Below are positions 9,423 to 52,222 of a DNA stretch of 64,000 nucleotides, piece after piece. The first letter of the stretch is position 1. The number at the start of each line of letters is the position of its first letter. The DNA comes from a virus (Duplodnaviria; Caudoviricetes): IMG/VR virus record IMGVR_UViG_3300028197_000002, one strand, 5' to 3'. A program made the position numbers and the translations under genes. Under the pieces are notes generated by a model. It did not search any database and was not told the origin of the DNA. It saw only the letters and a list, made by a program, of their open reading frames with translations.

Positions 9423-10634
9423 ATGAAAAAAAAACTAGTAAAATCTTTTAAAAGAGATTCCTATAATGGAAAAAAGAAGGAATCTGAAGTTGCTTTAGAA
9501 AGCGCAAACTTTAAAATTCACAAAATGAATAGTAGGCCAAGACCTGCACCTGAAAACACTATTCTAATCGCAACCTTTTCTGAATTTGGTTGTGAAAGCT
9601 TGGGCATAATGTACTGCATCCCAGCTTTGATTCAGGAACATCCTAGTAAATATAAGATAATAGTTGGTTGGTATGGAAGGGAGTTTCTTTATCGACATTT
9701 ATGCGATGAGTATTGGGAAATTAGTGAAGACTATATGCATCTCAGAGAATATGCTAATGCTTTTCATCATTCTTCTAAGAATTTAAGATCCATAGAGTCT
9801 TCTTTAAAAGAATATGGACTTGTTTTTCCTTCTGAATATTTAGGAAAAATATCAATAGGAATTAAGTGTAATAATTGTGGCCTATTTATGAATTCCGTAT
9901 ATGGAAATGGAGAGTCTTGGAAAGAATATAATGGAGAGAATACTTGTCCAGCTTGTGCTAGCGACAATATGACTCTTCCTATGCTTCAAGATATCAAGGG
10001 GTGGAAAGATAGAATGCTTCCAATTCCTTCTCCAAGTGAAGAAAAAATTAATTATGTCAAGAAATATTTAAAAAAACCTTCTGTTGGAATATTTGCTCGT
10101 GGAAGAAAACAATATGGAAGAAACTTGCAACCTGAATTTTACATTAATTTAATTAAAATGTTAGAGGATATGGGTTACAATCCTATATGGCTTGGGGAAA
10201 AGGTTTCCGTTCAGCCTTGCCCGGTAGATCATATTTTAGATTGGTCCCGAATGAAAGAGTCTCGTGATTTAGAATCTACATTGGCAATTATTAAAAATTG
10301 CGATTTCACAATTCAATTTTGGACTGCTTCTACTAGATTATCAGGAATGATTGGTGTTCCTTATATTTTGTTTGAAAGTCCTGATCAAATATGGGGAAAA
10401 AAAGGTCAAGAAGGAATTAGAAGAAATTTATGTGATTTGGGTCCTAGAAAATTAGCAGCCAATCATTTTTTAGATGTTTATAGAAACAATAAAGAAGGAC
10501 TAGAGATAGTGAAACAGTGCATAGAGGAACTAAATGCTGGTAACTATGAAGATATTATAGGATTAGTTGGTAATAAGAAGGCCATGTGGCAATATAAAAA
10601 AGATAACGACGAAAGGATAGGCAGTAAATTTTGA
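9423..10634 (+). CDS. GT9 (heptosyltransferase)-like glycosyltransferase with zinc-ribbon insertion
   Basis: N-terminal FGCE...IPAL...VDEYW; C-terminal DLESTLAIIKNCDFTI...TASTRLSGMIGVPYILF, a GT-B/GT9 pattern; CNNC...CPAC insert. Confidence 0.6.
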   Translation: MKKKLVKSFKRDSYNGKKKESEVALESANFKIHKMNSRPRPAPENTILIATFSEFGCESLGIMYCIPALIQEHPSKYKIIVGWYGREFLYRHLCDEYWEISEDYMHLREYANAFHHSSKNLRSIESSLKEYGLVFPSEYLGKISIGIKCNNCGLFMNSVYGNGESWKEYNGENTCPACASDNMTLPMLQDIKGWKDRMLPIPSPSEEKINYVKKYLKKPSVGIFARGRKQYGRNLQPEFYINLIKMLEDMGYNPIWLGEKVSVQPCPVDHILDWSRMKESRDLESTLAIIKNCDFTIQFWTASTRLSGMIGVPYILFESPDQIWGKKGQEGIRRNLCDLGPRKLAANHFLDVYRNNKEGLEIVKQCIEELNAGNYEDIIGLVGNKKAMWQYKKDNDERIGSKF

Positions 10635-11767
10635 TGTTTAGTGTTGAAGAAAATTTAAAAAGGTCTTCAGAAAAAATTGGATTAAGAAGAGTTGTTTTTG
10701 ATAGAAACAATATTCCTTCTTCTATGGAAAATATCGTTGTACTTGTTTTTTTTGGCGATATGGAATCTTCTTTTACTTTGTCTTCTTTGATTTTAAAAAG
10801 AATAAAAGAAGAGCTTAATTCTTCTAAATATTTTATATTAATATCTTGGCCCGGACATGAATGTTTATATCCTTATGTTGATGAGTTTTGGACTATTGAT
10901 AAAGAATCTGTTCTTCATAAGATGAGATCCAGAGTTAGTAGTTTTGAAAATAATTCTGAATATAAAACACTTCTATTAAGAGAATTAAATGAGTGGTTTT
11001 ATGACGTTCTTTCAGAAGACGCAATAACGTATTACTATGACAAAGGATTTACAAAGAATTTTTTTGATACGTTTAAAGAACCGAGAGTGTTTTTCCCTGC
11101 GATTAATTCTATAGCTTATCTAGGAGTCGATGTAGCTAGAGAATTAAATGAAAAGCAATCTAAGATTTTCATCTATCCAAGTAGAAAAATTAATATTTTC
11201 AAACAAGGAAAGGTTCAATGTGTTGATGTAAAAATAGAATTCTGGAGGAGTATGATAGAGAAGCTTCAGAAAAATGAGCTTTCTCCTGTTATATACAATG
11301 ATGTTTTTACACATGATTTTAGCCAAGAATTTCAAGATTGCATTCATGTCGTGAGCAACAACATGTCTTATGCCTTGACTGCCATGAGATCTTGCGGATT
11401 AGTTTTAGATTGTTTTAGTGGAATTTATAAAATGGCCATATGTGCCAGAACTCCCTTTCTATGCTTTGGAGAGAGGTCTAAGTTTAATTTTATGAAAGAA
11501 TATGAAGTAGACGATTTGTGTGCTTATAATTTAATGCCAAAAGAGTATATTTTTGCATTTTCTACTATATTAACCAAAGGAGAAGAAAGTGACTGGTCTG
11601 CATTGCATATTAGCGCCATAAATAGAGCTAAAAAGATGATAGCAGTTATGGACAGAGATAGACTCCCTCCGACAGTAGAACAGGATAAGGTCGTCCCTTA
11701 TGATATTGTCAGAGAAAACAAAATTAAAAAGTTAGGAACTAAATTCATAAAGGTAAAAGAGGACTAA
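10631..11767 (+). CDS. GT9-like paralog
   Basis: FFGDME...VDEFW and ALTAMRSCGLVLDCFSGIYKMAICARTPFLCF parallel the upstream gene; 4-nt overlap. Confidence 0.5.
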   Translation: MMFSVEENLKRSSEKIGLRRVVFDRNNIPSSMENIVVLVFFGDMESSFTLSSLILKRIKEELNSSKYFILISWPGHECLYPYVDEFWTIDKESVLHKMRSRVSSFENNSEYKTLLLRELNEWFYDVLSEDAITYYYDKGFTKNFFDTFKEPRVFFPAINSIAYLGVDVARELNEKQSKIFIYPSRKINIFKQGKVQCVDVKIEFWRSMIEKLQKNELSPVIYNDVFTHDFSQEFQDCIHVVSNNMSYALTAMRSCGLVLDCFSGIYKMAICARTPFLCFGERSKFNFMKEYEVDDLCAYNLMPKEYIFAFSTILTKGEESDWSALHISAINRAKKMIAVMDRDRLPPTVEQDKVVPYDIVRENKIKKLGTKFIKVKED

Positions 11768-11770
11768 CCG

Positions 11771-12010
11771 TTGAGAAAGCCACTAGTTAGAGTAGAACTT
11801 AAAGAAAGAGGCAGATCCAGTGCTGATAAGGATCGAGCCTTTAGACAACTTCTTTCCACATTTAAAAGAAGGGTTAATGAAGCTGGAATACTTACAACAT
11901 ATAAACAAAAGCAGTTTTATGAAAGCCCAAGTGAAAAAAGAAAGAGAAAAAGGAAAGAAGCAGAAGTAGAATCGCATAAAGAAAAAATAAGAAATTACTT
12001 TTCAAGGTAA
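11771..12010 (+). CDS. rpsU: 30S ribosomal protein bS21
   Basis: L..FKRRVNEAGIL..YKQKQFYESPSEKRKRKR matches bS21. Confidence 0.9.
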   Translation: MRKPLVRVELKERGRSSADKDRAFRQLLSTFKRRVNEAGILTTYKQKQFYESPSEKRKRKRKEAEVESHKEKIRNYFSR

Positions 12011-12020
12011 AAGGTGCAAA

Positions 12021-12293
12021 ATGTCAGATAAAAAAATAAAAATTATGAGTTTGTCTCTCGAACCAGAACTGCACGAACATATAAAAAATTCTGCAAAACG
12101 ACTCGGACACAAAAATGTTTCTAAAATGATTAGAGAGTTAATTTCTAATTACTTGGACTTAATGGTAAACGAAGGGGACGAAACTCCCGTCCTTCTCAAG
12201 GTTCCTAATGAAATTAGAAATGATGAAGAAGAATTGAAAAAATGGCTTTCTGTTAAATTAGAGGCTCTTTCAAAGGCTTTGTTAAAACAATGA
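12021..12293 (+). CDS. Ribbon-helix-helix (CopG-like) DNA-binding protein
   Basis: KIMSLSLEPELHEHIK..AKRLGHKNVSKMIRELI strand-helix-helix pattern. Confidence 0.7.
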   Translation: MSDKKIKIMSLSLEPELHEHIKNSAKRLGHKNVSKMIRELISNYLDLMVNEGDETPVLLKVPNEIRNDEEELKKWLSVKLEALSKALLKQ

Positions 12294-12772
12294 AAATAGT
12301 ACCTGTTGAAGATATCCCTAAAGAAATGGCAGACGTGTCATTGGATAATTTAAATGAGATATATGTCACAGGCAAAAAGATGGAGGCTATTTGTTTAGAA
12401 AACAATGGCATAGGGATTTCTGCTGCGCAGGTTGGAATTCCTTGGAATTTTTTTATTTATTGTGTTTATAAGAAAGATTTTCGTTACATAGTTAATTGTA
12501 AGTATGAGCCATTAACAGAAGAAAAATTTTCAGGGTTAGAGGGATGCCTTTCTATTTTAGATTCAAGTGGAAGTCCTAGAAGATTTAAAGTTCCTAGATA
12601 TAAAAAAATTAAAGTTTCTGGGTACGAGATTGTTTCTGGTGAAAAGCTGTATCTTGAAAAGTTCGAAAAAGATTTCACTCTTAGTCTAGAATCTGTTTTG
12701 ATTCAGCATGAAATAGATCATCAAGAAGGAGTTCTTATATCTGACATTGGCGAAGAGGTTCGGGTTTTTTAA
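12290..12772 (+). CDS. def: Peptide deformylase
   Basis: GIGISAAQVG, EGCLS, QHEIDHQEG. Confidence 0.96.
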   Translation: MKIVPVEDIPKEMADVSLDNLNEIYVTGKKMEAICLENNGIGISAAQVGIPWNFFIYCVYKKDFRYIVNCKYEPLTEEKFSGLEGCLSILDSSGSPRRFKVPRYKKIKVSGYEIVSGEKLYLEKFEKDFTLSLESVLIQHEIDHQEGVLISDIGEEVRVF

Positions 12773-12774
12773 TT

Positions 12775-13056
12775 ATGTTATCAATACTTCAAGTTCAAAA
12801 CGTTTGTTTGGTAGAAGGTGGGAATAAGTGTTGTAGATATTTATTAGAAGACGACCTAGATCCCAGCAAATTTCATTGCAATAAGTTAAGGCCTCTTGAA
12901 AAATCAAAAATAGATAAAGAGGTTAATGGCTTTCTTTCTGATTGTCATGTGAAAAAAGTAAATCCATCAAAATATTCTAAGTCGCTTGGAAATAACTGTG
13001 ATGGATATTTAATTTTGCATCATATAGAACAGGGATACGACAAAGAAGATTCTTAG
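12775..13056 (+). CDS. Cys-rich hypothetical protein
   Basis: 93-aa ORF coupled to def; six Cys. Confidence 0.7.
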   Translation: MLSILQVQNVCLVEGGNKCCRYLLEDDLDPSKFHCNKLRPLEKSKIDKEVNGFLSDCHVKKVNPSKYSKSLGNNCDGYLILHHIEQGYDKEDS

Positions 13057-13538
13057 TCGTCTCTAAGGAATTCGTATGCTTTTGTTTCCACTTTGGCCCC
13101 AAGAGCAGAAATTAAAACGCTTTCCTCAAGATCTTTGTTGTGCAAAGCTTTTATTTCTTTTCCCATAACCTCTGCTGTCTTTTTGTACTCTAAGGCTTTC
13201 TTTCTGTAATCATATATCAAGAATATAAGTAAAGAAAGCACGACAAGACCAACTATTAATCCTCCATCTCCTTGGAATAAAGTTACTCCTGTATTTTTTG
13301 TGTTTGAATTTATAAATCCATTTTGTAAATTTTCTATATCACCAGCTAAGATATCCAATTGGTTTCTTATTGCTGATATATCTGCTAATATTCCATTTTG
13401 ATTATTTTTTATATCTCCAATGTCTCCGCTTCCACCATTTATATTTGGTCCGTTTGGACTAAGAGGGCTAAATTTACATCCGGACACAAATAGGAAGCTA
13501 AAGCTCATAATGAGTGTGAACAAAAAATTTTTATACAT
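13053..13538 (-). CDS. Lipoprotein with internal TM helix (u-spanin-like topology)
   Basis: Start reassigned to the ATG at 13538 (AGGA RBS). Signal MYKNFLFTLIMSFSFLFVSG-C lipobox, heptad region, TM GGLIVGLVVLSLLIFLIY followed by DYRKK. Confidence 0.7.
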   Translation of the reverse strand: MYKNFLFTLIMSFSFLFVSGCKFSPLSPNGPNINGGSGDIGDIKNNQNGILADISAIRNQLDILAGDIENLQNGFINSNTKNTGVTLFQGDGGLIVGLVVLSLLIFLIYDYRKKALEYKKTAEVMGKEIKALHNKDLEESVLISALGAKVETKAYEFLRDD

Positions 13539-13560
13539 ATTGTTTTTCCTTTGTTTAAAT

Positions 13561-13869
13561 TTATTTTTTAATGTGAGCATCGGCCCATTTTGAGCTTTCT
13601 GGCATTTTATTGTCGTCTGTATACTTTTTCCATTTTTCGTAACTATACAGATCAATATATTCGCTTCTTCTTAATGGTCTATTTTCTTCTGCTTTTTTAA
13701 GAAGTCCTTGTCTTATCTTGTGTAATTCAGGATAGCTCGGACGACCAGAGTTTTGTCCTGCCACAACATTTGCTTTGTTTATTTTCTTTTCAAAAGAATT
13801 GCTAGTTTTTCTTAGATATTCTTTTCTTTCTAAGAAGTCAGAAAATTTTATAAAGCTTTGTTCTTTCAT
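13561..13869 (-). CDS. Basic hypothetical protein with CTS-like start (KFSDFLE)
   Basis: 102-aa ORF; ATATATA upstream. Confidence 0.7.
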   Translation of the reverse strand: MKEQSFIKFSDFLERKEYLRKTSNSFEKKINKANVVAGQNSGRPSYPELHKIRQGLLKKAEENRPLRRSEYIDLYSYEKWKKYTDDNKMPESSKWADAHIKK

Positions 13870-13969
13870 AATAAAGATATATATTGTTTTAATAAAATTT
13901 AAAAATAAAAAAAGAATAATTTATTTTGCATGTGAAGTTTTCGTTTTTCTATGAATTGTGTCAATCCCG

Positions 13970-13998
13970 TTGACATATTAGATTTTTTGTAATAAAAT
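13970..13998 (+). promoter_or_regulatory. sigma70 promoter
   Basis: TTGACA-17 bp-TAAAAT. Confidence 0.75.
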
Positions 13999-14038
13999 GT
14001 TAGTGGAATTTTTAACTTTAAACTTAAAAGGATTTAAG

Positions 14039-14461
14039 ATGAGTGAGTATGTTTTAGAAGCAGAAGAAGACATAGATATAGACGTAGAACTAAAAAATAA
14101 TGAAGATTTAATTGAACAAATAGAAGAAATAGATGGTTTGTCCAAACAGGCCATTTCTAATTATTTTTTAAATGAAGAAATGTATACTGGAGATTTAATT
14201 GAGAAAAGTCTAATTCATTTGCCCTATTATGTTTTATTGGTTAGAAATACATCTGTTTCAGAGGGAGTTGTGAAAGCTTATAAAATGATTGAAGATTGTG
14301 GTTTTAAAGATTCTATTTCTATAAATAAAAGTAGTATGCCAGAAGATGTTAAATTTGTTTTAAATTTGATAAAAAAAATACAAAGAGAAGTTTCTCAAGA
14401 ATTTGTTGGTGGAATATTGTTGATGCATTTAGAGTTAATTGAAGGAATAGAGATGTGGTGA
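14039..14461 (+). CDS. Hypothetical protein
   Basis: ATG after an AAGGA RBS, downstream of the promoter. Confidence 0.7.
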   Translation: MSEYVLEAEEDIDIDVELKNNEDLIEQIEEIDGLSKQAISNYFLNEEMYTGDLIEKSLIHLPYYVLLVRNTSVSEGVVKAYKMIEDCGFKDSISINKSSMPEDVKFVLNLIKKIQREVSQEFVGGILLMHLELIEGIEMW

Positions 14462-14778
14462 TCAGCCGGGAAGATAAAGACATGAGGCTGGTTTCGGGCT
14501 GTTTCTTTGAAAACGAAATAGACAAGAGCAATTCTTGGTTATTGAAATATTTCAAGTCTGATATTCAAATTAGATTTTTAAAATATTACTTAACATTCGG
14601 TGGATACTATTACTTCAGAAGACATACTGGGATTTTTTGTTCAACTAGATATTTGGAATCGCTGAAGAAAAGATTGAGTTATTTATTAAAAATACACAAA
14701 GAGTCCAAGGCCAATTTTGACTTGGATCTTCTTGCTAAAATAGAAATGGGAAAAATTAAGAATTTAAAAGATATATAA
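14455..14778 (+). CDS. Hypothetical protein
   Basis: ORF overlapping the previous gene. Confidence 0.6.
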   Translation: MVISREDKDMRLVSGCFFENEIDKSNSWLLKYFKSDIQIRFLKYYLTFGGYYYFRRHTGIFCSTRYLESLKKRLSYLLKIHKESKANFDLDLLAKIEMGKIKNLKDI

Positions 14779-14793
14779 AGAAGTGATATTCCA

Positions 14794-15225
14794 ATGGAGA
14801 GCAAAATGAAAAAAATTATGTCTTTTAAAGATTATGTGTTAACAAAAGAATCAAGTGCTGCAACTAGATTGCGTAGAGATGCTGCTCTTGGCTTAAAACC
14901 ACCAATTCCAGATGCAATGCTTCACAGCAGATCTACAGCTTCTCCATTTGAAGTAAAAGAAATACAAAAGAAAAATAAGAAAAAAAAAATAAGAAAATGT
15001 AGCGAGTCAGTTCGTTCAGCGCCGCAGAAGCCTGATTCTGTAGAAGACGGCCAGTGTCCAGATTGTGGATCGCCAGCTACGCTATATAATTATGGAATAG
15101 ATGCCGGTGGCAATGAGGATCACAGAACTGATTGCAGCAATCCTAAGTGTGATAATTATGGTATAACTAAAAAATCAACACATCTATCGGCTCCTCGTGG
15201 TAGCATGTCTCGTGGATACATGTGA
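14794..15225 (+). CDS. Basic protein with CTS-like motif and zinc ribbon
   Basis: MSFKDYVLTKES near the start; CPDCG...CSNPKC. Confidence 0.7.
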   Translation: MESKMKKIMSFKDYVLTKESSAATRLRRDAALGLKPPIPDAMLHSRSTASPFEVKEIQKKNKKKKIRKCSESVRSAPQKPDSVEDGQCPDCGSPATLYNYGIDAGGNEDHRTDCSNPKCDNYGITKKSTHLSAPRGSMSRGYM

Positions 15226-15255
15226 AAGAACTAATTTTTTAAGCAGTTGCTTGTA

Positions 15256-15702
15256 ATGGAATCATCAAAAGATATTACTGATTGGGATATTAAATTTTTA
15301 AAATTAGCCCAACACGTTTCAGATTGGTCAAAAGATCCAAGCACTAAAGTTGGAGCTGTTGTAGTCGATGAAGATAATAGGATTGTCTCTATTGGTTATA
15401 ACGGCTTTCCTAAAGGTGTTCGAGATGATGAAAGACTTGAGAATAGAGATGTTAAATATTCTTTAATTCTTCATGCTGAAGAAAACGCTTTGCTTTTTTC
15501 TAAACAGAATTTAAAAAATTGTAAAATCTATACTTACCCTTTGTTTCCGTGTTCTCGTTGTTGTGCAAAAATAATCCAGTGCGGAATAACTGAAATTATT
15601 GCTTTAAAAAATGAAAATCTAAGATGGAAAGACAGCATAAATCTTTCTATTAAAATTTGCGAAGAAGTTGGAATTTCTTATAAATTCGCCTCAGATCTCT
15701 AA
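15256..15702 (+). CDS. dCMP deaminase
   Basis: SKDPSTKVGAVV, IGYNG, HAEENAL, PCSRC. Confidence 0.93.
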   Translation: MESSKDITDWDIKFLKLAQHVSDWSKDPSTKVGAVVVDEDNRIVSIGYNGFPKGVRDDERLENRDVKYSLILHAEENALLFSKQNLKNCKIYTYPLFPCSRCCAKIIQCGITEIIALKNENLRWKDSINLSIKICEEVGISYKFASDL

Positions 15703-15766
15703 GATTTTACTATATTAGGTAAACTCTAGAGTTGGAGATAAGGAGGTGAATTTTCCTCTCTGACAC

Positions 15767-15805
15767 AAACGGTAGAATTTTTTAAAATTATTCTGCCGTT
15801 TTTTT
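15767..15805 (+). terminator. Rho-independent terminator
   Basis: AAACGGTAGAA/TTCTGCCGTTT stem followed by a T7 run. Confidence 0.8.
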
Positions 15806-15812
15806 ATAAATA
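15805..15812 (+). promoter_or_regulatory. T4-type late promoter TATAAATA
   Basis: Exact motif 5 nt before the ATG of the virion gene block. Confidence 0.75.
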
Positions 15813-15817
15813 TACTT

Positions 15818-16774
15818 ATGAGATACTCTGAATTAAATCACGTAAGCGGCTGTGGCGATCAAAGCGGCTGTACGAATCTAAATGGTTGCGAAAGTGGAGC
15901 TGTTGCGGCTGTATGTATAAAAAGACACGATACCCAGCCATCTTTTAGAACATCTGTAGAAGATTGTGACGGCCCTATGGACCTCACAGATACCAACTTG
16001 GTTTTAGAATATAATCTTTGGTCAAGAGCTAAACTTAAAAAATCTATAACGAATACTGATGACACAATTGCTTTTGCTGACAATATAGGATTTGGCCAAG
16101 TAATGCAACATGATGTGATTATTATTGATTCTGGAAGATTACCAGAACACATGCTTGTTATAGGGTTTGATGAAGAAAATAAATTAATAAAAGTTCAGAG
16201 AGGATACAACGGAACTACTGCCATAAGTTTAAAGAAGGGAACTGGACTAAGATCTTTTAGAGCAGTTGATGGAAACGCTGAAATAGAGACTGTTTTAGAG
16301 GATGTTGTCAAAGAAGACGGAACTGTTTTAAAAGATCAAATTGCTGCTACTTATTTTGTAGTCAATTGGAGTCCTGAAGACACATGCTTGCCGGGATGTT
16401 ATTGGCTAGAGTTTAAATTAATTAAAATGAAGTCCTCCTCCTACCTCAGTTCTGCTTCTGTAATATCTTCTTTTACTCCTTCAACATATACTCCAGCAGA
16501 TTTTGGATGCGGATTAGGAGATGGCATGGAATGGGTGAGAAGATTTCCTGTCGATCAAGAAGGCTTTTTAATTCACATAGTAGATTCTCCCACTGCAGAA
16601 ATGAATATATCGGGTAGTAGTATTGGTGGTGGTGGTGGCGGAAGTCATGACCATGTTGCTTCGGATACTGCGCCAATAAGTCCATCTTCTGGAGATCTGT
16701 GGTTTAACACGACAAATTTAAAATTGTATGTTTACTATAACGATGGAACCAGTGCTCAATGGGTAGAAGCATAA
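15818..16774 (+). CDS. Virion structural protein (BppU-like N-terminus, tail-fibre-type C-terminal repeat)
   Basis: IKRHDTQPS...DLT motif; C-terminal PSSGDLWFNTTNLKLYVYYNDG...QWVEA repeat shared with the next gene. Confidence 0.7.
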   Translation: MRYSELNHVSGCGDQSGCTNLNGCESGAVAAVCIKRHDTQPSFRTSVEDCDGPMDLTDTNLVLEYNLWSRAKLKKSITNTDDTIAFADNIGFGQVMQHDVIIIDSGRLPEHMLVIGFDEENKLIKVQRGYNGTTAISLKKGTGLRSFRAVDGNAEIETVLEDVVKEDGTVLKDQIAATYFVVNWSPEDTCLPGCYWLEFKLIKMKSSSYLSSASVISSFTPSTYTPADFGCGLGDGMEWVRRFPVDQEGFLIHIVDSPTAEMNISGSSIGGGGGGSHDHVASDTAPISPSSGDLWFNTTNLKLYVYYNDGTSAQWVEA

Positions 16775-16813
16775 CAAAAGAAATAAATTTAATGAGTAAG
16801 CATAGGAGATAAA

Positions 16814-18331
16814 ATGGCTCAAAATTTTCCAGATAGTCCCGTCTTAAATGACTTGGCAACTGTTAATGGAATTGTTTATAAGTGGAATGGTTTTGCTTGG
16901 GATATTGTTCAATCAGCAGGAGCCAATGTTACCATTAGTGATAATGCGCCTTCTGCTCCTAGCGTTGGAGATCTTTGGTGGGAAAGTGATGTTGGTAGAC
17001 TTAAAGTTTATTATAATGATGGCGTGACGAGTCAATGGGTTGATGCAAGTCCATCTAGTTCCGGAATATCACTAACAAATTTAAGCATAGGATCAGAAGG
17101 AGTTGCTAGTGGAGATGGTTCTTTAGGCTACGACAATACAACAGGAGTTTTTACTTACACTCCTCCTGATTTAAGTAGTTATTTAACCGCTACTTTGGAT
17201 GCTGATATTGACTTAAATGGAAATTCCATAGTCGATTCAACCTTAGCAGGTTTTGTAACATCTAATTTAAGAACATTCGAAACGAAAATTCAATTAGGTG
17301 GAGATTCAGATGCTGACACTTATGGATATGCCATTGGGCAAGAAGCACAAGCCGGTATATATGATGTTACTATTGGTGCATATGCAGGAAAAAATAAAAA
17401 AACTACAAACAATAATTACTCTATTGGAATCGGAGCGTTTGCTCAACAAAATTCAAATCCGGGCGATGAAACAGGAACTGGAGCTATAGCTATAGGAGTT
17501 TTGGCTGGAGATGCTAATCAAGGCGAAAATGCTTTGGCTTTAGGAAGATATGCTGGAAGAAATAATCAAGCCACTAAAAGCATTGTAATTAATGCTACTG
17601 GTAGTGATTTAGAAAATATAACTGCAAATAGCTGTGTCGTTAAGCCCATCAGAAATGCGGCAGGAACACATGGCTTAGAGTATGATCCTGCAAGTGGAGA
17701 AATCACATATGACACATTGTCGTCAGGTGGAATTTCAGACTCTATAACAGAAGGAAATTCTAGTGTGGAGGTCACAGATACAGGTTCAGATGGGCATATA
17801 GACCTAACTACAGAAGGAACTTTGAGATGGGAGATAACGTCAACAGGACATCTTCTTCCATCCACAAATGAAGATTATGACATAGGCTCTGCTAGTAGAA
17901 AAGTTAGGCATTTGTTTTTAAGCGATAATTCTCTTTATTTTGTAGATTCTTCTGATAACGAAAGAGTTCTTAATGTTAATAGCGATGGAAAAATTGTTTT
18001 CGATGGATCTAATATAGCAGACAGAAGCTCTGAAGTTCCTTCGAACGGCGCTGTCATAGATTTAAATAAAACAAATCATTTTGTTTCTCCCGGAGAATCT
18101 TATGTTTTAGAAGATGGAACATACACAGGACAAGAACTTAGTTTTTGGAAACAGGTAGGAGTTGGCTATCCTGAAATAAATGTTTCTAATGCTCTTTGGA
18201 CTAGTACAGGAAATTCAACAGGTATTGAGTCTTCATTTGTTTGGAGATTAAGTGGGGATTATGTCGGCAAGTTTTCTTGTGTATGGAATGGTGCGCAATG
18301 GTGCTTGAGTAGTGGGGAGACAGGAGTTTAA
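16814..18331 (+). CDS. Tail fibre / virion protein
   Basis: NFPDSP...YKWNG..W, GDLWWESDVGRLKVYYNDG, YDNTTGVFTYTPPDL, AIG-repeat (YadA-like) segment, HLLPSTNEDYDIGSASRKVRHLF. Confidence 0.8.
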   Translation: MAQNFPDSPVLNDLATVNGIVYKWNGFAWDIVQSAGANVTISDNAPSAPSVGDLWWESDVGRLKVYYNDGVTSQWVDASPSSSGISLTNLSIGSEGVASGDGSLGYDNTTGVFTYTPPDLSSYLTATLDADIDLNGNSIVDSTLAGFVTSNLRTFETKIQLGGDSDADTYGYAIGQEAQAGIYDVTIGAYAGKNKKTTNNNYSIGIGAFAQQNSNPGDETGTGAIAIGVLAGDANQGENALALGRYAGRNNQATKSIVINATGSDLENITANSCVVKPIRNAAGTHGLEYDPASGEITYDTLSSGGISDSITEGNSSVEVTDTGSDGHIDLTTEGTLRWEITSTGHLLPSTNEDYDIGSASRKVRHLFLSDNSLYFVDSSDNERVLNVNSDGKIVFDGSNIADRSSEVPSNGAVIDLNKTNHFVSPGESYVLEDGTYTGQELSFWKQVGVGYPEINVSNALWTSTGNSTGIESSFVWRLSGDYVGKFSCVWNGAQWCLSSGETGV

Positions 18332-18348
18332 TTTTATAGGAGAACATT

Positions 18349-19698
18349 ATGGCATTTTCATTCCCAACTTCACCTAGTGTTAGTGACACTGTTACTTTAG
18401 GTGGATTAGTTTATATATGGAATGGTTCGAGTTGGGAAACCCAAGTTGTTAATTTAGGTCTTCTTAGCATTAACAATTTGAGCAACGTTGATTTCAATAG
18501 CGTCACTTTAGATGGAAGTAATGGTGACGGTAAAGTTTTAGCTTGGGATCAATCATTGCAATCTTTTGCTCCTATAGATCAATCTGCAGATCTTAGCGTA
18601 ACAACAGCTGCTGCATCAACAACGCCTAGTTTAGCATATGATGATGGAACTGGAGTGTTCACATACACACCTCCAGATTTAGGAAGCTCTATAGTATCTC
18701 AGTCAGAATATTCCAGCACAATAACAACAAATGCATCTGACGCTTCAGAAACTGGATCTTATATCCTAGGGAACACAGGCGCAGCAAGTGCGACTGGATC
18801 ATCCACAGGTTGGTTTTTTGGAGACATTGTTCAAGATCCTGATAATCCGGGAACATCAATTATACTTGATGTAGACAGTGCTATTTTTGGCCCCGGAACA
18901 ACTCTAGGAAATCATGATGGCAATGTTCGAACTCCTACTGGTTCACATACCATTTTAGACGTAGGAACAGATGGAACAGATGGCACATTAACCATTACAA
19001 ATATTACGGCAGATGGAACTTTAGATTTTTCTGGCGCGACTGTTACTGGTGTAGTGGCAGGATCAGACACGCAGATTCAATTTAACAATAGTGGATCTTT
19101 TGGGGCTGATGCTAATTTAATATTTAATTCTTCTGAGCAAAGAGTTGTTGTTGGCTCAGGAGGAACCGGCAAGTTCGAAGCATCAAGTTTCATGGGTCAT
19201 GCTGATCAAACAACATATGTTTCTTCGCAGACTACGGGTTCGGAAAGCACTCACTTTGCTTTAAATAGTACAAGTGGAGTGCTAACTAATATTTATGGAT
19301 TTACTACATTTCAAGGAAACGCTTGTTTTGAAAAACAGGTTCAAGAAAAATTTAGCACAATAAATGCAGCGACTGGAACAGTGACTCATGATTTAGATGA
19401 TGGTCAAGTATTTAGACACACAAGTCCTTCAGCTGACTTTACTGCTAATTTAACAAATATAAATTTAACTGGCGATCATGCAATGACCGTTACAATTGTG
19501 ATTGAACAAGGAGCAACAGCGTTTATTGTTAGTTCGATACAAATTGGAGGAGCTTCTCAAACAATAGAATGGCAAGGGGGAATTACACCTTCTGGTACAG
19601 ACAATGGATTTGATATAATGAGTTTTAGTATATTAAATACAGGAACGACAGGATCTCCTTCTTATTTGGTGATGGGACAATTGGTTGACTTTGCTTAG
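18349..19698 (+). CDS. Tail fibre / virion protein
   Basis: FSFPTSP...YIWNG..W, YDDGTGVFTYTPPDL, GSDTQIQFNNSGSFG; C-terminal beta domain (WQGG..PSGT..G.DI.SF). Confidence 0.8.
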   Translation: MAFSFPTSPSVSDTVTLGGLVYIWNGSSWETQVVNLGLLSINNLSNVDFNSVTLDGSNGDGKVLAWDQSLQSFAPIDQSADLSVTTAAASTTPSLAYDDGTGVFTYTPPDLGSSIVSQSEYSSTITTNASDASETGSYILGNTGAASATGSSTGWFFGDIVQDPDNPGTSIILDVDSAIFGPGTTLGNHDGNVRTPTGSHTILDVGTDGTDGTLTITNITADGTLDFSGATVTGVVAGSDTQIQFNNSGSFGADANLIFNSSEQRVVVGSGGTGKFEASSFMGHADQTTYVSSQTTGSESTHFALNSTSGVLTNIYGFTTFQGNACFEKQVQEKFSTINAATGTVTHDLDDGQVFRHTSPSADFTANLTNINLTGDHAMTVTIVIEQGATAFIVSSIQIGGASQTIEWQGGITPSGTDNGFDIMSFSILNTGTTGSPSYLVMGQLVDFA

Positions 19699-19707
19699 GA
19701 GATAAAA

Positions 19708-22605
19708 ATGCCGTTTATGTCGTCTTTTTCGGGATCTTTTGGCGTAGGAAGAAGATCAAATTCAATTAAATTTGGACTTACAAAGCCACATAGAATTATA
19801 GCTCATTATAGTCCCGGTAATTCTAGTAGTTATGGCGGAAGTGGAGCAACATTAGTAGATTTAACAAACAATAATTATGATGCAAATATTGTAGGAAGTC
19901 CTCCTTTTAACACAGATAACTTTCTTATTGAATCTGGAGATTACATATCTACGCCTTCACTAGACGCAGACATTAATAGCAGTAGTGAAAATCATACTTT
20001 GGAAATATGGTGCTATCCAACAGGAGATGGTGTTGTTGCTCAATATTGTGGTCAAGTAACCCCAAACACAGGTTATCACCACTCGGCAATAGAGATAGTA
20101 TCTGGACAAGTGGAATTTGGATTATTGAGCATAAGTAGCCTTGTTAGTTCTGGGCCTACTGGAAGCATAAATTTAAATACTTGGAATCAAATAGTTTTAA
20201 CATATGACGGTTCTTACATTAGAGGTTTTGTGAATGGCCAAAGAGTTACAAAGACTTCGGTTTCGTGGACATCCCCAGCAGATGGCAGCTTGCCATTACA
20301 TATGGTTTTTGGAGCATCTGCCACAACGAACCAAGGAGACGGAACTGATTTTGATGGAAATTTAGGAATTATTAGGATTTACGATAGGAAGTTAAGTCGT
20401 AGTTCAATTTTAAGAAATTATAAACATGATTTAGAAACTCACTCTGCAATTGTTATAACGGACACTCCAGATGGATTTGATGATCCTGTTGTGTCTGGAG
20501 AGATGGCAACAAGTACTTTGTTGGGCGGCGTGGATGATTCTGTTGCAGCATTAACAGCAAAACTTAAACCTAATCATAGGTTTATTGTTCCTGCTAGTTG
20601 GATTGAGAGTAATGTTTTGCCTAATCTTTCTTCAGATCAATCCAAAGTTTTTTTTGGTGTTCCAAAAGATAGTGCCAATTGGAGTGATGTTGCATTGTCA
20701 GATGATTTTTGGGCGGTGTTTAGGATTGAAAGAGATAGCTCAACACAGCATAATTCTTATTTAAATATTACAGGAAGCAGTCCTGATTATGATGAGGCCA
20801 CTGTTTCATCTTTATCATCTGCTTTTTATGATTATGCAATTGAATGGGACGGAAGCAATCTTCATGTAATTGCCACCACTTCAAATGACATTAGCACTCA
20901 AACTGGTGTTTCTGATGGTGGTTCTTTCACTAGGGTTGCAACCTACAGCAATTTTGCCTCAGAGCAGAGCAAGGTGAATGATGAGCTAACGCTTGTTATT
21001 GCTGTTGATGACGGCGGCAAGGTTGAACTTTCAGACACAGGGCTTAGTCAGATTAGAATACCTTGGAATACATCTACAACTGTTCTTTGTGGCGAATCCA
21101 GTAGTGGAAATGGAAACTATGGTTTTGTTAATGAGTCTACGTTTGATGAATCGGGCCAACACGCACCGAGTGGCTTGTCTTATAGTGGAATTAGCTCTCT
21201 GAACGCTGGAGAAACTTACAAATTCATTTATGATCCATCAATGGAATCATCAGATTATATAGAGTTTAGGCTAGCGGAAGATGCCACTACCGTCTACACC
21301 CAAGGAATCACCACTTTTGATGGCACAAACTCTGGCGATCCAAACGCGGACCAAAACTACAAAGGAATTATTTTTACTGTTCCTGCCGATGTTCCTCCAC
21401 TAAGACTTTACCACTACAACAGCCATGGATCAGGATCTTATGACAACGGACGATATATAGATATGATTGGATCATCTGTTACATATGCAGTAGCTCCTGT
21501 TTCTACAAGTCAAGACGAAGGGACAGCTTTACAGTTTAATGTTACAACAACAGACGTTCCTGATGGAAAAACTATTTATTGGACGGCGAATCACTCATCA
21601 ACATCGGACGCAGATTTTGTAGAAAAATTGTTTAGCGTAACGGCGGGAAGTACAACTATATCAAATAATTCTGCTAGTTTTGATGTAACATCAGTGGCTG
21701 ATTCACTAACTGAAGGAAGCGAAACTTACTTTGTTGAAGTGCGTATAGGTATTGGTCAGACTATAGGGCTGATTGTTGCTACTAGTTCTACTGTAACTGT
21801 AAATGACACAAGTCAAAATGCATGGGACCCATCAACAGACATAACAACAGCTGCTTGGATTGATGCGTCAGATTCTTCAAATTACACAAGAAGTGGAACA
21901 TCACTACTTTCTGTGAACGATAAAGCAGGAACTTACACAATGTCAGTTGGTGGCAATCCTGTTACTAATTCAAGCACTCAAAACGGATTAAATATATTTG
22001 ATTTTGATGGTAATGGTGATTATCTACAAAGTACAACTTATTCAACACAAGCATCATCTGGTAATCATTGGGCAATCGGAGTTTTCAGGTATGAAAATGT
22101 AGACAGTAATAAAGATACTATTTGGAGTTATGAAACAAATGGTTCACCAAAACGAGATTATGCAATGAGTAGTGGCAACTCATCATCATGGACAGGAGAA
22201 TTAGATTTAGATGGTTTATCTAGCAATAGAATTAGTAGTTCAATCGGTAATGCGGAAGTTTGGAATTTGAAAAGTTTAACAAAAAACCAATATCATATAG
22301 TTGCTTGTTGGTTCAATAAGACAGGAAATCAAATTGGCGTTAGAATAGATGGTTCAAATGCATTCACACCAGTAAATGATTATGATAATTCATTGCAAAC
22401 AAACCAAGAATTAAGATTGATGAGAAACAGGTCGTCACAATCATTAGATGGAAAATTATCAGAGTTTTTTGCGGTGGCAGGTATTCCCGGTACAAGCGGA
22501 ACTGACTTGACTCATTTAATAAAAGCAGAAGGATATTTGGCTCATAAGTGGGGATTGGCGGGAAGTTTGCCAAGTAGTCATGCTTATAAAAATAGCGCTC
22601 CTTAA
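19708..22605 (+). CDS. Large receptor-binding/tail protein with LamG (concanavalin-like) domains
   Basis: TLEIW, WNQIVLTYDG..IRGFVNG, FDGNLGIIRIYDRKLS; second LamG-like C-terminal domain ending EGYLAHKWG. Confidence 0.8.
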   Translation: MPFMSSFSGSFGVGRRSNSIKFGLTKPHRIIAHYSPGNSSSYGGSGATLVDLTNNNYDANIVGSPPFNTDNFLIESGDYISTPSLDADINSSSENHTLEIWCYPTGDGVVAQYCGQVTPNTGYHHSAIEIVSGQVEFGLLSISSLVSSGPTGSINLNTWNQIVLTYDGSYIRGFVNGQRVTKTSVSWTSPADGSLPLHMVFGASATTNQGDGTDFDGNLGIIRIYDRKLSRSSILRNYKHDLETHSAIVITDTPDGFDDPVVSGEMATSTLLGGVDDSVAALTAKLKPNHRFIVPASWIESNVLPNLSSDQSKVFFGVPKDSANWSDVALSDDFWAVFRIERDSSTQHNSYLNITGSSPDYDEATVSSLSSAFYDYAIEWDGSNLHVIATTSNDISTQTGVSDGGSFTRVATYSNFASEQSKVNDELTLVIAVDDGGKVELSDTGLSQIRIPWNTSTTVLCGESSSGNGNYGFVNESTFDESGQHAPSGLSYSGISSLNAGETYKFIYDPSMESSDYIEFRLAEDATTVYTQGITTFDGTNSGDPNADQNYKGIIFTVPADVPPLRLYHYNSHGSGSYDNGRYIDMIGSSVTYAVAPVSTSQDEGTALQFNVTTTDVPDGKTIYWTANHSSTSDADFVEKLFSVTAGSTTISNNSASFDVTSVADSLTEGSETYFVEVRIGIGQTIGLIVATSSTVTVNDTSQNAWDPSTDITTAAWIDASDSSNYTRSGTSLLSVNDKAGTYTMSVGGNPVTNSSTQNGLNIFDFDGNGDYLQSTTYSTQASSGNHWAIGVFRYENVDSNKDTIWSYETNGSPKRDYAMSSGNSSSWTGELDLDGLSSNRISSSIGNAEVWNLKSLTKNQYHIVACWFNKTGNQIGVRIDGSNAFTPVNDYDNSLQTNQELRLMRNRSSQSLDGKLSEFFAVAGIPGTSGTDLTHLIKAEGYLAHKWGLAGSLPSSHAYKNSAP

Positions 22606-22631
22606 AAAGATTTTTAAAAAACTTTAAATCG

Positions 22632-22659
22632 TTGCACATTTAATGCAAATTGATATAAT
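22632..22659 (+). promoter_or_regulatory. sigma70 promoter
   Basis: TTGCAC-16 bp-TATAAT with TG extension, upstream of infC. Confidence 0.65.
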
Positions 22660-22674
22660 TAAAAACAACAAAAC

Positions 22675-23187
22675 ATGAAAAGATTTGATTCAAATAAACC
22701 AGTCGGTCCTAGAAAAAACGAGCAGATTCGTTTTTCTACGGTTCTTGTAATTCACGGAAGTGAAAATTTGGGAGTTATGCATCCCAAAGAAGCTTTAAAA
22801 ATAGCAAAATCTCACAAACTTGATCTTGTCGAGGTTTCTCCCGATGCCAGACCTCCAGTTTGTAAAATAATGGATTATGGAAAATATAATTATTCAAATT
22901 CTAAATCTAAACAAAAAAACAAAAAACAAAAGACCAAAGAGGTTCGAATATCATGCAGAATTGGCGAGCATGATTTATTGACTAAAAGAAATTTAGCTGA
23001 AAAATTTCTAGGCCAAGGTCATAAAGTTTTGTTGAAATTAGAACTAAAAAGAAGAGAAAATATGTATAAGAATATTGGATTTTCTATGGTGAAAAAGTTT
23101 TGCGAGTATTTTGATGATTTTTCAATTAACAGACCTAATTTAGATGGAAGATTCATTACTTGTGTGATTGAGCCAAAAAATGTTTAG
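22675..23187 (+). CDS. infC: Translation initiation factor IF-3
   Basis: RKNEQIR, LDLVEVSPDARPPVCKIMDYGKY, KEVRI...IGEHDL.TK...FL..GHKV. Confidence 0.95.
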   Translation: MKRFDSNKPVGPRKNEQIRFSTVLVIHGSENLGVMHPKEALKIAKSHKLDLVEVSPDARPPVCKIMDYGKYNYSNSKSKQKNKKQKTKEVRISCRIGEHDLLTKRNLAEKFLGQGHKVLLKLELKRRENMYKNIGFSMVKKFCEYFDDFSINRPNLDGRFITCVIEPKNV

Positions 23188-24088
23188 ACAAATAAAGAAT
23201 TATTCTCCAAAAGTAATTCACAAAACTCTTGGCGAGGTTGGTCTTGACTTTTATAACTTTGCCGATCAGATAGACCTAGATCACCCTGACATTAATTACT
23301 TTTCTTTTTCTGATAAAATTAATCAGTCTTTTTCTTTGGTGGATCTAGCAATAAAAAATAATTTATCAGATTCTATTGACGGAATAGAAAATCTTTACTT
23401 CAAAGAGATTGAATTTTATAAAAAAATACATTGCTTGGAAAAAGCTTTTCCTAGATTTCTTAATTCTAGGAAAAAGATAGAAATGATAAGGAGATCTAAA
23501 AAGATTTCTGATGTTTTTTTAAGCACATTTAAAAAAACTCCTAGAACTATTTGGGACAACCTTCCATTTGATTTTGAAATTTTTCTAAAGAACAAAAGCT
23601 ATGAAAAATATTTAAAAGAAGCCGAAGAAACTTCGTGTAAATTTAGATATTTTGGATGTGATCAGATGGCAGATCACATAGATGATAATTTAAATAAAAT
23701 AAAATCTATATTTAAAAATAATTATTTTGGATACAAAGAACTAAGCATTTCAAATGCGGCAATCATTCTGGCTAAGATGCATGAGTTTAAATTAAGAAAT
23801 AATCATCGTGATTGTTCAATTTATTATAAAAAATTAAATTACAAACCAAAAGTTTATCCTATTCATGAGCTTGGTAGCATAAAAACAAAAAGGTTTACTA
23901 ATTTAATGGGTAGATTAGAAGAAAAGCCTCTTTTTGATCATTATTTTGTTGTTGTTCCTTCTTATTCTAATGATGGCAAGAATTTTTCTAATAGTGAAAT
24001 ATTGAATAAAATATCTAAAAATGATATCGTACCTGTAATTATGGGCGAAAGAGGTTTTAAGACTTATTTTATTTCTTATTGGATCTAG
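23180..24088 (+). CDS. Hypothetical protein
   Basis: ~300-aa ORF overlapping the infC end. Confidence 0.75.
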   Translation: MFRQIKNYSPKVIHKTLGEVGLDFYNFADQIDLDHPDINYFSFSDKINQSFSLVDLAIKNNLSDSIDGIENLYFKEIEFYKKIHCLEKAFPRFLNSRKKIEMIRRSKKISDVFLSTFKKTPRTIWDNLPFDFEIFLKNKSYEKYLKEAEETSCKFRYFGCDQMADHIDDNLNKIKSIFKNNYFGYKELSISNAAIILAKMHEFKLRNNHRDCSIYYKKLNYKPKVYPIHELGSIKTKRFTNLMGRLEEKPLFDHYFVVVPSYSNDGKNFSNSEILNKISKNDIVPVIMGERGFKTYFISYWI

Positions 24089-24097
24089 GAGTTGTAG

Positions 24098-24442
24098 ATG
24101 AAAATAGATGTAAATTTTAAAATCTCGGATAGTGCGGCGAAAGAGCTTAAAAAAGCCATGAAAGAATCAGACTCGGAAGGATCAAATGTAAGAGTAGGAG
24201 TTCAAGGAGGAGGTTGTTCAGGATTCATGTATCAATTGGGTTTTGAAGAAGCAGAAACTTTCAATGAAGAAAATGATATTCTTGAAATCCAAGAAGGAAT
24301 TAATGTTGTGATAGATAAGAAATCTGCGATTTTTTTGAATGACGTTATTTTAGAGTGGGTTGAAGACTTAAATCAAAGAGGATTTAAGTTCAATAATCCT
24401 AATGCAAACAAAAGTTGCGGTTGTGGTCAATCGTTTAGTTAA
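24098..24442 (+). CDS. iscA: A-type Fe-S carrier (IscA/HesB/ErpA family)
   Basis: VRVGVQGGGCSG and FKFNNPNA..SCGCGQSF. Confidence 0.95.
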   Translation: MKIDVNFKISDSAAKELKKAMKESDSEGSNVRVGVQGGGCSGFMYQLGFEEAETFNEENDILEIQEGINVVIDKKSAIFLNDVILEWVEDLNQRGFKFNNPNANKSCGCGQSFS

Positions 24443-24892: not shown

Positions 24893-25267
24893 ATGAATGA
24901 AATTTTAGGTGTAGATGGAGAACAAGTGCAAGTTAGCAAGTCAGTTCCATCTTTGAAAGATGTTGTGCCGTGTGGTTCTCAAGTTTTAGTTGAAGTATTA
25001 ACTGCTCAAGAAGCCATGGGTACTGTTCTCACGATTGAGGCAGATGCGGCGATTACAGGAGCGCCACAGGGCTATGTAAGAAAAATAGGCCCTCGTGGAA
25101 GTAATGATTGGGGATTTAACATTGGAGATAGAGTTACTCTTCATGGAAACTATACTCCAGTCACACAGCAAGTAGATAGAGAAAACTCTCACAGAGAGTG
25201 GATTTTAGTTGATCCTAATCAGGTAAAAGCTGTTTTGGTAGAAAAAACAAGTTGCTGTAAATCTTAA
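24893..25267 (+). CDS. groES: GroES-like co-chaperonin
   Basis: VVPCGSQVLVE...QGYVRKIGP...IGDRV...ILV...VKAVL. Confidence 0.75.
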   Translation: MNEILGVDGEQVQVSKSVPSLKDVVPCGSQVLVEVLTAQEAMGTVLTIEADAAITGAPQGYVRKIGPRGSNDWGFNIGDRVTLHGNYTPVTQQVDRENSHREWILVDPNQVKAVLVEKTSCCKS

Positions 25268-26544: not shown

Positions 26545-26969
26545 TCTACTTCTATTTTTTGTATTTTAGAAGGTTCTTTTGTTAGATCGTCTTCGGATCT
26601 TTGAAAGATGACAGTTATTCTTTTACCTATTTCGGGTGTTTTTTGAATTCTGTTGAATTGATCTAAACTTAAATATAACTTGGTTCCATCTTTTAGTCCT
26701 ATGCAAATAGGATTGCTGTTTATGTCTATTTCAGATATAAACGAGCTTCTTACTACTTGTGGAATTAGAAGATCTAGTCGAGGCCCAACACCACCCAATT
26801 GATCAAAACGGCCCCAATTAGGCCCAGACCCAGTCCATGTGGCGGGAACTACTGCGCTTGTTGCAAAGTCATTATGTTTTCCCGGTGTTAATGGAAGGTT
26901 TTTTCCATGTGGAGTACGTGGCCTTTGATAAGCTCTTTCTGTTAAATGTAACCATTCTTTAAAATTCAT
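26541..26969 (-). CDS. Hypothetical late protein with CTS-like start
   Basis: Start reassigned to MNFKEWLHLTE; AATAAATA lies 5 nt upstream. Confidence 0.7.
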   Translation of the reverse strand: MNFKEWLHLTERAYQRPRTPHGKNLPLTPGKHNDFATSAVVPATWTGSGPNWGRFDQLGGVGPRLDLLIPQVVRSSFISEIDINSNPICIGLKDGTKLYLSLDQFNRIQKTPEIGKRITVIFQRSEDDLTKEPSKIQKIEVD

Positions 26970-27000
26970 AACTATATTTATTATAGCTGAGAGGAAAATT

Positions 27001-51472: not shown

Positions 51473-51637
51473 TAACTAATACTAAGCCTGTTTTAGGCAG
51501 ACTTTTAAGCTATCATCTAGATGATATATTTTTTCTATTATCTTTTTCACTAAAATTTAAAGCATCTCAAAAATAAATTAGTAAGATAATTCATTTTTTC
51601 TTGCTTTAAATTTTAGATTTGATTCATAAATAATCAC

Positions 51638-52222
51638 ATGGAATTTAAAGCATTTGTATCGGAAATAGAGACGGACTCAATGAAATTGTTAGGTGATTTT
51701 CAAATTAGTGAAAACTTAAAGTATCACTTAGAAAACAACTTGTCTCTATGTAATAATATTTTCAGAGTCGGAAGTGATTCTTACTTTGATTTAATAAAAG
51801 AAATCAAATCACTTTATTACGAAAACAAAGTTGCTTTAAATGATGACGATTTTGGTCTTTTAGAGACTGATCTTTGTGAGATTTTTGAAAACGGAGATGA
51901 ATTAATTTATTTAGATTTGCCTGTGCTTATTGGTGAAGCTGAATATAAAGGGAAAAAAGTAAAGTTAAATAATCCTTCAAGAACTCCCGGAGGTCCAAAG
52001 AAATTTAAGGTTTATGTGAAAGGCAAAAATGGTAAAATAAAAATTGTCAGGTTCGGAGATCCTAATTTAAAAATAAAAAACATGAACCCTAGTAGATCTA
52101 AAAGTTTTAGAGCTAGGCATAAGTGTTCTGAAAAAAAAGATCGTACTACTCCGGGATATTGGTCGTGCAACATAGCTAGATATGCCAAAATGGTTGGCCT
52201 CTCCAGCTCTAATCCATGGTGA
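51638..52222 (+). CDS. Conserved phage protein (KSFRARHKC/YWSC family) with CTS-like start
   Basis: EAEYKGKKVKLN.P..GGPKKF.VYV...VRFGD...SFRARHKC...GYWSC; CATAAATA lies 5 nt upstream. Confidence 0.75.
   Translation: MEFKAFVSEIETDSMKLLGDFQISENLKYHLENNLSLCNNIFRVGSDSYFDLIKEIKSLYYENKVALNDDDFGLLETDLCEIFENGDELIYLDLPVLIGEAEYKGKKVKLNNPSRTPGGPKKFKVYVKGKNGKIKIVRFGDPNLKIKNMNPSRSKSFRARHKCSEKKDRTTPGYWSCNIARYAKMVGLSSSNPW

Follow-up and report, generated by a model that had tools for sequence, protein, structure and literature searches.

Intact bS21, peptide deformylase, and IF3 genes kept together across a clade of large phages, and their relation to leaderless-type late genes

We analyzed a 64,000-nucleotide stretch of viral DNA (Caudoviricetes; IMG/VR record IMGVR_UViG_3300028197_000002), referred to here as the window, which encodes ribosomal protein bS21 (rpsU), peptide deformylase (PDF; def), and translation initiation factor IF3 (infC). 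Gene identity, intact motifs, start codons, clade-wide synteny, and a signature of purifying selection support the conclusion that these three genes are intact and maintained together across a clade of large phages. On balance, we consider it reasonably probable that they are auxiliary translation genes with which such phages keep up translational capacity. An earlier interpretation made from the DNA letters alone (the sequence-only reading) had joined the same genes to leaderless late genes and to two RNA elements in an integrated system that biases host ribosomes toward phage messages, a proposal that we weigh below.

The positions that the sequence-only reading gave for rpsU, def, and infC were borne out by profile scores and by the motifs that their products retain. 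bS21 scored 48.1 bits against PF01165 (cut-off 27) and 42.7 bits against TIGR00030 (cut-off 28.95) over its two-helix core; its alignment to solved bS21 chains begins at residue 21, and it carries a clade-specific insertion of ~10 residues past the first strand. IF3 possesses both domains of the family (IF3_N, PF05198, 94 bits; IF3_C, PF00707, 61.6 bits), scored 132 bits against TIGR00168 (cut-off 60), and aligns over its full length to the solved IF3 proteins of Geobacillus, Thermus, and E. coli, with a linker 4 residues shorter than that of its relatives. PDF scored 75.8 bits against PF01327 (cut-off 22.8), and its catalytic motifs are intact as GIGISAAQ, EGCLS, and QHEIDH (family forms GxGxAAxQ, EGCLS, and QHExDH). 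It falls below the NCBIfam equivalog level for type 1B enzymes (TIGR00079, 56.6 bits versus a cut-off of 103.95), and its chain ends 16 residues past HEIDH, with most of the bacterial type 1B C-terminal helix absent: 8 residues follow the aligned region, versus ~22 in bacterial chains, which run ~14 further. The PDF of cyanophage S-SSM7 (3UWA, 154 aa) ranks with the best of its matches that have a solved structure. Viral PDFs without the C-terminal helix, which docks bacterial PDF on the ribosome, are known, and the S-SSM7 enzyme is active (PMC3660681). Located between rpsU and def is a gene that had been overlooked, encoding a protein of ribbon-helix-helix (RHH) type. Its N-terminal strand and two helices form a pattern kept in six lineages, and by family it is a putative DNA binder.

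Relatives of the window IF3 range from 95% to 42% identity and lie on large metagenomic contigs with a common gene order. We compared the window with a closer relative (L001), with five further diverged metagenomic lineages (L004, L006, L007, L008, and L009), and with the published 595-kb huge phage genome LR756511.1; between the diverged members of this set, IF3 is just 42–50% identical. The clade order begins with DnaE and, after a gap, runs through a DHH protein, proteins of ~390 and ~380 aa, S21, RHH, PDF where present, a ~90-aa protein, and a minus-strand gene. It continues with dCMP deaminase, variable genes, and IF3, followed at intervals by GroES-like and DnaJ proteins, GT2, and PhoH. 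LR756511.1 shares this order with the window, reading 380 aa, 382 aa, S21, RHH, and PDF, then deaminase, a thiamine pyrophosphate (TPP) enzyme, and IF3. Every fetched lineage that spans both positions contains bS21 and IF3. The RHH gene always lies between rpsU and def, or directly 3′ of rpsU in lineages without def, and its LR756511 homolog is 44% identical (E 6e-22). The open reading frame (ORF) that ends the run, a 93-aa frame without a Pfam or NCBIfam match, has a counterpart of 82–101 aa at the same position in L004, L006–L009 (L007 and L009 lacking def), and LR756511.

Alignments of bS21, RHH, PDF, and IF3 revealed conserved cores, and comparison of infC with its L001 counterpart yielded a ratio of nonsynonymous to synonymous change (dN/dS) of 0.14, with 0.09 for neighboring genes. 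A search with bS21 returned metagenomic proteins only, on contigs of up to 634 kb, the source contig of the window being listed there at 372,493 bases. On account of the synteny, the conserved cores, the dN/dS value, and these search results, we regard bS21, IF3, and PDF as old, maintained phage genes and not as recent captures. Pattern-based searches of IMG/VR with PDF and with IF3 found no relatives, and nothing among phage records matched either the phage bS21 by tblastn or positions 10000–24000 by megablast.

PDF is the variable member of the set. Its catalytic residues are invariant in the four lineages that bear it (the window, L004, L006, and L008); L007 and L009 lack it and encode a type I methionine aminopeptidase instead (313 and 308 bits, cut-off 171). 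Methionine aminopeptidase acts only after deformylation, and phages of these two lineages would therefore rely on host PDF; the swap points to nascent-chain processing capacity as what is being supplied.

The start signals of the genes differ. rpsU is preceded by a Shine-Dalgarno (SD) sequence, which is of AGGAGA type in relatives; RHH has the SD AAAGGTG; and def is translationally coupled to RHH through the overlap of their stop and start codons. infC lacks an SD (duplex energy +1.7) and lies behind a promoter kept in L001 as TTGCAT...TGATATAAT, the joint form being TTGCA(C/T), 16–17 nt, TGATATAAT. Judged from this promoter, the infC transcript would have an A/C-rich, SD-less leader of ~9 nt. 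At every one of the seven loci read, drawn from six lineages, infC starts with ATG; an upstream non-AUG start was considered and rejected, as the N terminus aligns with solved IF3 chains. Bacterial infC in E. coli and relatives is limited via a non-AUG start. The phage gene shows neither this start nor the bacterial infC-rpmI-rplT organization, rpmI and rplT being missing 3′ of it, where a 306-aa protein without assigned function and then an IscA-like gene are found. Because it starts with ATG, phage infC would not be subject to the start-codon feedback by which bacteria hold IF3 in check, and it would probably not be throttled by IF3. In Flavobacterium johnsoniae, infC starts with ATA, and the anti-SD-sequestering bS21 of Bacteroidetes is defined by the basicity of its tail and by a signature Tyr (PMC7797042). 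The weakly basic tail and the Tyr 12 residues past the KPS/T motif that mark this type were absent in 6 of 6 phage lineages, in which tail pI is 9.5–10.4 (10.4 in the window) and V, I, or L stands at +12 after the KPS-like motif. The phage tail thus fits the SD-competent kind.

The window is dense phage DNA of ~32% G+C, coded mostly on the plus strand, with a DnaE-type polymerase and tail-fiber-like genes. rpsU, def, and infC are spread over at least two transcription units, with ~10 kb between the rpsU-RHH-def run and infC; the def-infC interval is variable and holds tail-fiber-like genes in the window and HNH or TPP-enzyme genes in relatives. What surrounds the three genes is not a dedicated initiation locus; it is a replication and proteostasis block comprising DnaE, dCMP deaminase, a GroES-like protein, DnaJ, and ClpP. 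fmt is not beside def.

We then considered the leaderless-looking genes to which the sequence-only reading had tied the set. In five non-redundant lineages (146 kb) we counted the cases in which d bases separate TAAATA from a downstream ATG that opens an ORF of at least 60 codons. There were 10 cases at d = 5 (N5), versus a mean of 1.3 at other spacings (Poisson P ~1e-6), and the variant ATAAATA gave 11 cases at N5 versus 0–2 elsewhere over seven loci. The leaderless-type late-promoter geometry is therefore statistically real. The window has three such sites; the layout at 15818 is repeated in orthologs at L001:1447, L006:9137, and L008:9145, and that at 26969(−) in orthologs at L001:14216(−) and L006:15291(−). 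The T4 late box is numbered from −13 (PMC2988020), and N5 therefore puts +1 on the A of the ATG. These genes may thus yield candidate leaderless mRNAs with the 5′ end on that A. The claim of leaderless-looking genes accordingly stands as a promoter-to-ATG spacing, and leaderless transcripts are a deduction from it. Several leaderless-type gene products open with Met-Asn-Phe (window 26969(−), L006:17798(−), and L006:15291(−)). SD-led starts form the other class: a strong SD (duplex energy at or below −5 kcal/mol) precedes 38% of 93 ORF starts, versus 7% of internal ATGs, and about half of the 93 lack an SD.

The geometry occurs beyond this clade. SAR11 phage HTVC008M (L010) has 9 and 2 N5 cases in two 50-kb stretches, those of the first stretch at annotated starts, and OM43 phage Melnitz has a weak 2 in 50 kb. 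T4 (75–125 kb) has no N5 peak, TATAAATA lying 14–28 nt before starts with SDs between, and cyanophage S-SSM7 has none at N5, with leaders of 12–39 nt. bS21 is carried by HTVC008M, Mosig, and Melnitz and is missing from T4 and S-SSM7, so that in this comparison of five lineages, which are not phylogenetically independent, N5 geometry was found only in bS21-bearing phages. No Pelagibacter phages were among the IF3 search matches, no IF3 was detected in HTVC008M, and N5 geometry thus does not need a phage IF3. By tblastn, no homolog of the late sigma factor gp55 was found in the 64-kb window or the fetched loci; the TATAAATA-like box itself is present. Late-promoter prediction failed in a study of SAR11 myophage genomes (PMC7029224), and the N5 layout may be the reason.

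An SD/anti-SD RNA had also been proposed near 15720. The hairpin there is real and conserved, with a fold z-score of −4.3; we found no promoter from which it could be transcribed on its own, and no evidence for that part of the proposal. The noncoding segment 15703–15817 is 95% identical to L001:1331–1446, versus ~50% difference at synonymous sites, and three stem substitutions between the two all preserve pairing. In L006 (9047–9136), AGGAGGTGA follows the deaminase stop, again before a terminator and a late-promoter-N5-ATG arrangement. L004, L007, and L009 have the same downstream gene set directly against the deaminase stop and led by an SD; one gene family thus switches between SD-led starts in those lineages and leaderless-type starts in the window, L001, L006, and L008. 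On what we regard as the simplest reading, TAAGGAGGTGA may be an ancestral SD on which selection continues, although an insert carrying a terminator and a late promoter now stands between it and its gene. We rejected a possible mini-ORF behind the orphan SD, since its frame is disrupted in L001 by an indel of 1 nt.

Features of the window and of compared phages; coordinates refer to the window unless another locus is named
Feature	Position	Strand	Description
rpsU	11771..12010	+	bS21, 79 aa; TTG start; AAGAGGA in front
RHH gene	12021..12293	+	CopG-type, 90 aa; PF01402 26.8 bits (cut-off 20.5), residues 10-46
def	12290..12772	+	peptide deformylase, 160 aa; PF01327; start overlaps RHH stop (ATGA)
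Conserved 93-aa ORF	12775..13056	+	ends rpsU-RHH-def run; convergent minus-strand gene next
SD hairpin	15731..15764	+	contains TAAGGAGGTGA (15739-15749); 3′ untranslated region of dCMP deaminase gene
Terminator hairpin	15767-15801	+	directly after SD hairpin
Leaderless-type start 1	15805..15820	+	late-promoter geometry: TATAAATA, 5 nt, ATG of tail-fiber-like gene 15818-16774
infC promoter	22632..22659	+	sigma-70-like; TTGCAC, 16 nt, TGaTATAAT
infC	22675..23187	+	two-domain IF3 of 170 aa; starts with ATG; Pfam, TIGR00168
IscA-like gene	24098-24442		Pfam
GroES-like co-chaperonin gene	24893-25267	+	124 aa; 42% identical (E 5e-20) to L009 protein passing Pfam Cpn10
DnaJ gene	25363-26304	+	Pfam
Leaderless-type start 2	26969..26985	-	ATAAATA, 5 nt, ATG of 142-aa gene 26541-26969
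ClpP gene	30510-31127		Pfam
Leaderless-type start 3	51626..51640	+	CATAAATA, 5 nt, ATG of gene 51638-52222
Type I methionine aminopeptidase gene	L007:14610-15362, L009:14615-15367	-	above equivalog cut-off
HTVC008M N5 sites	L010: 6280, 7562, 11972, 18943, 19456, 31132, 49760, 18916(-), 16007(-)		

Several features of the neighborhood bear on the three genes less directly. The window co-chaperonin scores under the Pfam Cpn10 cut-off and its L009 ortholog over it; lying just 5′ of DnaJ, it may be a functional analog of T4 gp31. Every lineage, and LR756511 too, has two adjacent genes for proteins of ~380–400 aa directly 5′ of rpsU (9423–10634 and 10631–11767 in the window). As possible partners of the translation genes they were dropped: both are hypothetical viral proteins, and a weak resemblance to glycosyltransferase-9 in the protein atlas is the one lead. 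The top match to the sigma-70 consensus in the region (13970–13998; TTGACA, 17 nt, TAAAAT; 11/12) overlaps the ATG called at 13997, and the real start of that gene may lie further downstream. Consensus matches as a whole were not enriched (66 versus 73 in shuffles), which makes the scan uninformative on expression timing. A tRNA scan found no tRNAs, and an Rfam search returned a single miRNA match at chance level.

In the explanation we favor, the phage would supply its own bS21 and IF3, which are small, exchangeable parts of the initiation apparatus on the 30S subunit, and its own PDF, the first nascent-chain processing enzyme. rpsU, the RHH regulator, and def would operate as one tightly packed run inside the replication-gene block, and infC as a separate unit with its own promoter near the GroES-like, DnaJ, and ClpP genes; early or middle expression is predicted for both. 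Initiation on the 30S subunit and deformylation would then be held at high capacity as host supply declines, with the ATG-started infC raising total IF3. That the phage proteins bind host ribosomes or alter mRNA choice is conjectural, as are the activities of phage bS21, IF3, and PDF, all being predicted from sequence. Other points also weigh against a pure capacity role. It leaves unexplained why bS21 and IF3 were chosen over other factors, why an RHH gene is wedged between rpsU and def, and why bS21 co-occurs, in a small comparison, with leaderless-type geometry. Moreover, regulation through a non-AUG infC start is textbook for E. coli and its relatives and may not be that of the host of this phage.

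An origin of the three genes as recent host captures without adaptive value for the phage would suit the existence of bacterial homologs for each, the frequent coming and going of auxiliary genes, and the loss of PDF from two lineages. It is hardly credible, being already contradicted by the conservation data: the synteny maintained across lineages that differ so widely in IF3, the infC dN/dS value, and the restriction of bS21 matches to metagenomic proteins on large contigs. The host operon partners, rpmI and rplT after infC and fmt beside def, are missing as well. A different possibility is that phage bS21 displaces a host bS21 that hides the anti-SD, exposing it to the sole benefit of strong-SD phage messages. 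The basic tails without Tyr at +12 in all six lineages are non-Bacteroidetes in type by the criteria of PMC7797042; many phage genes have strong AGGAG-type SDs; and ribosomes of F. johnsoniae without bS21 recover SD recognition (PMC9976891). This account supposes that the host is possibly a member of Bacteroidota, as predicted for the largest Mahaphages, and the cassette does occur in LR756511.1, a 595-kb genome published by the same study in which the largest genomes make up the Mahaphage clade (PMC7162821). That LR756511 belongs to the Mahaphages or has such a host is nonetheless supposition, the infC promoter is sigma-70-like and not Bacteroidetes-like, and the nearest cultured carriers of bS21 and PDF infect SAR11 and OM43 Proteobacteria (PMC7029224). 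We therefore think this displacement very unlikely.

The integrated system of the sequence-only reading would have bS21, IF3, PDF, the leaderless late genes, the orphan SD hairpin, and an RNA with CsrA sites partition ribosomes among classes of phage mRNA, with, for example, SD-led early and middle messages translated on 30S subunits loaded with bS21 and IF3 and leaderless late messages on 70S ribosomes. Both start classes that it needs are present, in the excess of strong SDs at ORF starts and in the TAAATA-N5-ATG class, and one gene family alternates between them among lineages. Its distribution also looks favorable, with an N5 peak in bS21-bearing HTVC008M (11 in 100 kb), a weak one in Melnitz, and none in T4 or S-SSM7, both without bS21. 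Yet the lineages compared are few and related, the bS21-bearing ones all being marine phages and, where a host is assigned, infecting streamlined heterotrophs, and HTVC008M achieves the geometry with no detectable IF3. The genes share no operon, motif, or regulatory link, and the leaderless starts are predicted from spacing. The sign of the effect in E. coli also weighs against it. There, as the sequence-only reading had assumed, bS21 supports SD-led initiation by propping up the anti-SD, and ribosomes without bS21 and uS2 translate the leaderless lambda cI mRNA better (PMC10491246). When bound to the 30S subunit, IF3 selects against leaderless mRNA, although 50S-bound IF3 has been proposed to promote its initiation (PMC8138138). 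Host-like phage copies should accordingly favor SD-led messages, and because bS21 and 30S-bound IF3 act in this direction, a system biasing ribosomes toward leaderless mRNA is unsupported; the wider partitioning scheme we consider unlikely. A more specific proposal is that in marine T4-like phages bS21, and in the giant clade IF3 as well, co-evolved with strong-SD and leaderless TATAAATA-N5-ATG late classes, that loading of the 30S subunit with bS21 and IF3 times the switch between classes, and that the orphan SD hairpin is an extra anti-SD-binding element. This would be quite improbable in our estimation. We thus retain the capacity-keeping explanation.

Phage ribosomal and initiation proteins are a known class whose roles are predicted, and as a gene inventory the locus is ordinary, its kind of gene set having been published for huge phages and for SAR11 phages. 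Phages larger than 200 kb have been reported to encode IF3, S21, and PDF, for which a role in intercepting the translation of the host was proposed (Al-Shayeb et al. 2020, PMC7162821), in agreement with the sequence-only reading that such genes occur in large phages; the idea that they redirect host translation is thus already in print. The same study notes extra N-terminal sequence on huge-phage S21, and in the portions consulted we found no mention of an S21-RHH-PDF cassette, an infC ATG start, or a link to T4-type late promoters. What is new here is the fixed rpsU-RHH-def cassette, the infC ATG start, the replacement of PDF by methionine aminopeptidase in some lineages, and the joint presence of a leaderless-type late-promoter layout. 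The locus adds a clean comparative picture, in which the cassette and the ATG-started infC are maintained from ~370-kb to 595-kb phages.

Pelagimyophages, which like the window phage are marine and T4-like, have S21 and PDF as core genes, with PDF within a DNA-metabolism operon (PMC7029224), and HTVC008M has the TAAATA-N5-ATG geometry in common with the window. They differ in their smaller genomes (~140–150 kb), in having no detected IF3, and in an S21 located away from RHH and PDF; the gene beside S21 in HTVC008M does not resemble RHH. HTVC008M bS21 is only ~40% identical to that of the window over 43 residues, and it enters E. coli ribosomes according to PMC6375957 as cited in PMC9723584. 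The leaderless-type layout of this cultured SAR11 phage offers, with Pelagibacter, a culturable system in which the effect of bS21 on mRNA choice could be studied.

The PDFs of the window and of S-SSM7 (3UWA; PMC3660681) are alike in being short (154–160 aa), in retaining three intact motifs, and in ending soon after motif III. They are only ~36% identical over 72% of their length, and the window enzyme, unlike that of S-SSM7, is not associated with photosystem genes, its coupling being to rpsU and RHH. Freshwater Bacteroidetes phages of up to 331 kb possess a clade-wide bS21 for which a takeover of initiation has been proposed (Chen et al. 2022, PMC9723584). Their bS21 is encoded among structural genes, expressed late, and has Tyr54, whereas that of the window lies in a replication block and has a basic tail with no such Tyr. 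Finally, the promoter PRM of lambda sets the transcript start of cI at the A of the AUG (PMC10491246), as the geometry of the window would. In contrast to PRM, the arrangement described here, as predicted from spacing, has a putative T4-type late promoter with a TATAAATA box and recurs at several genes per genome.

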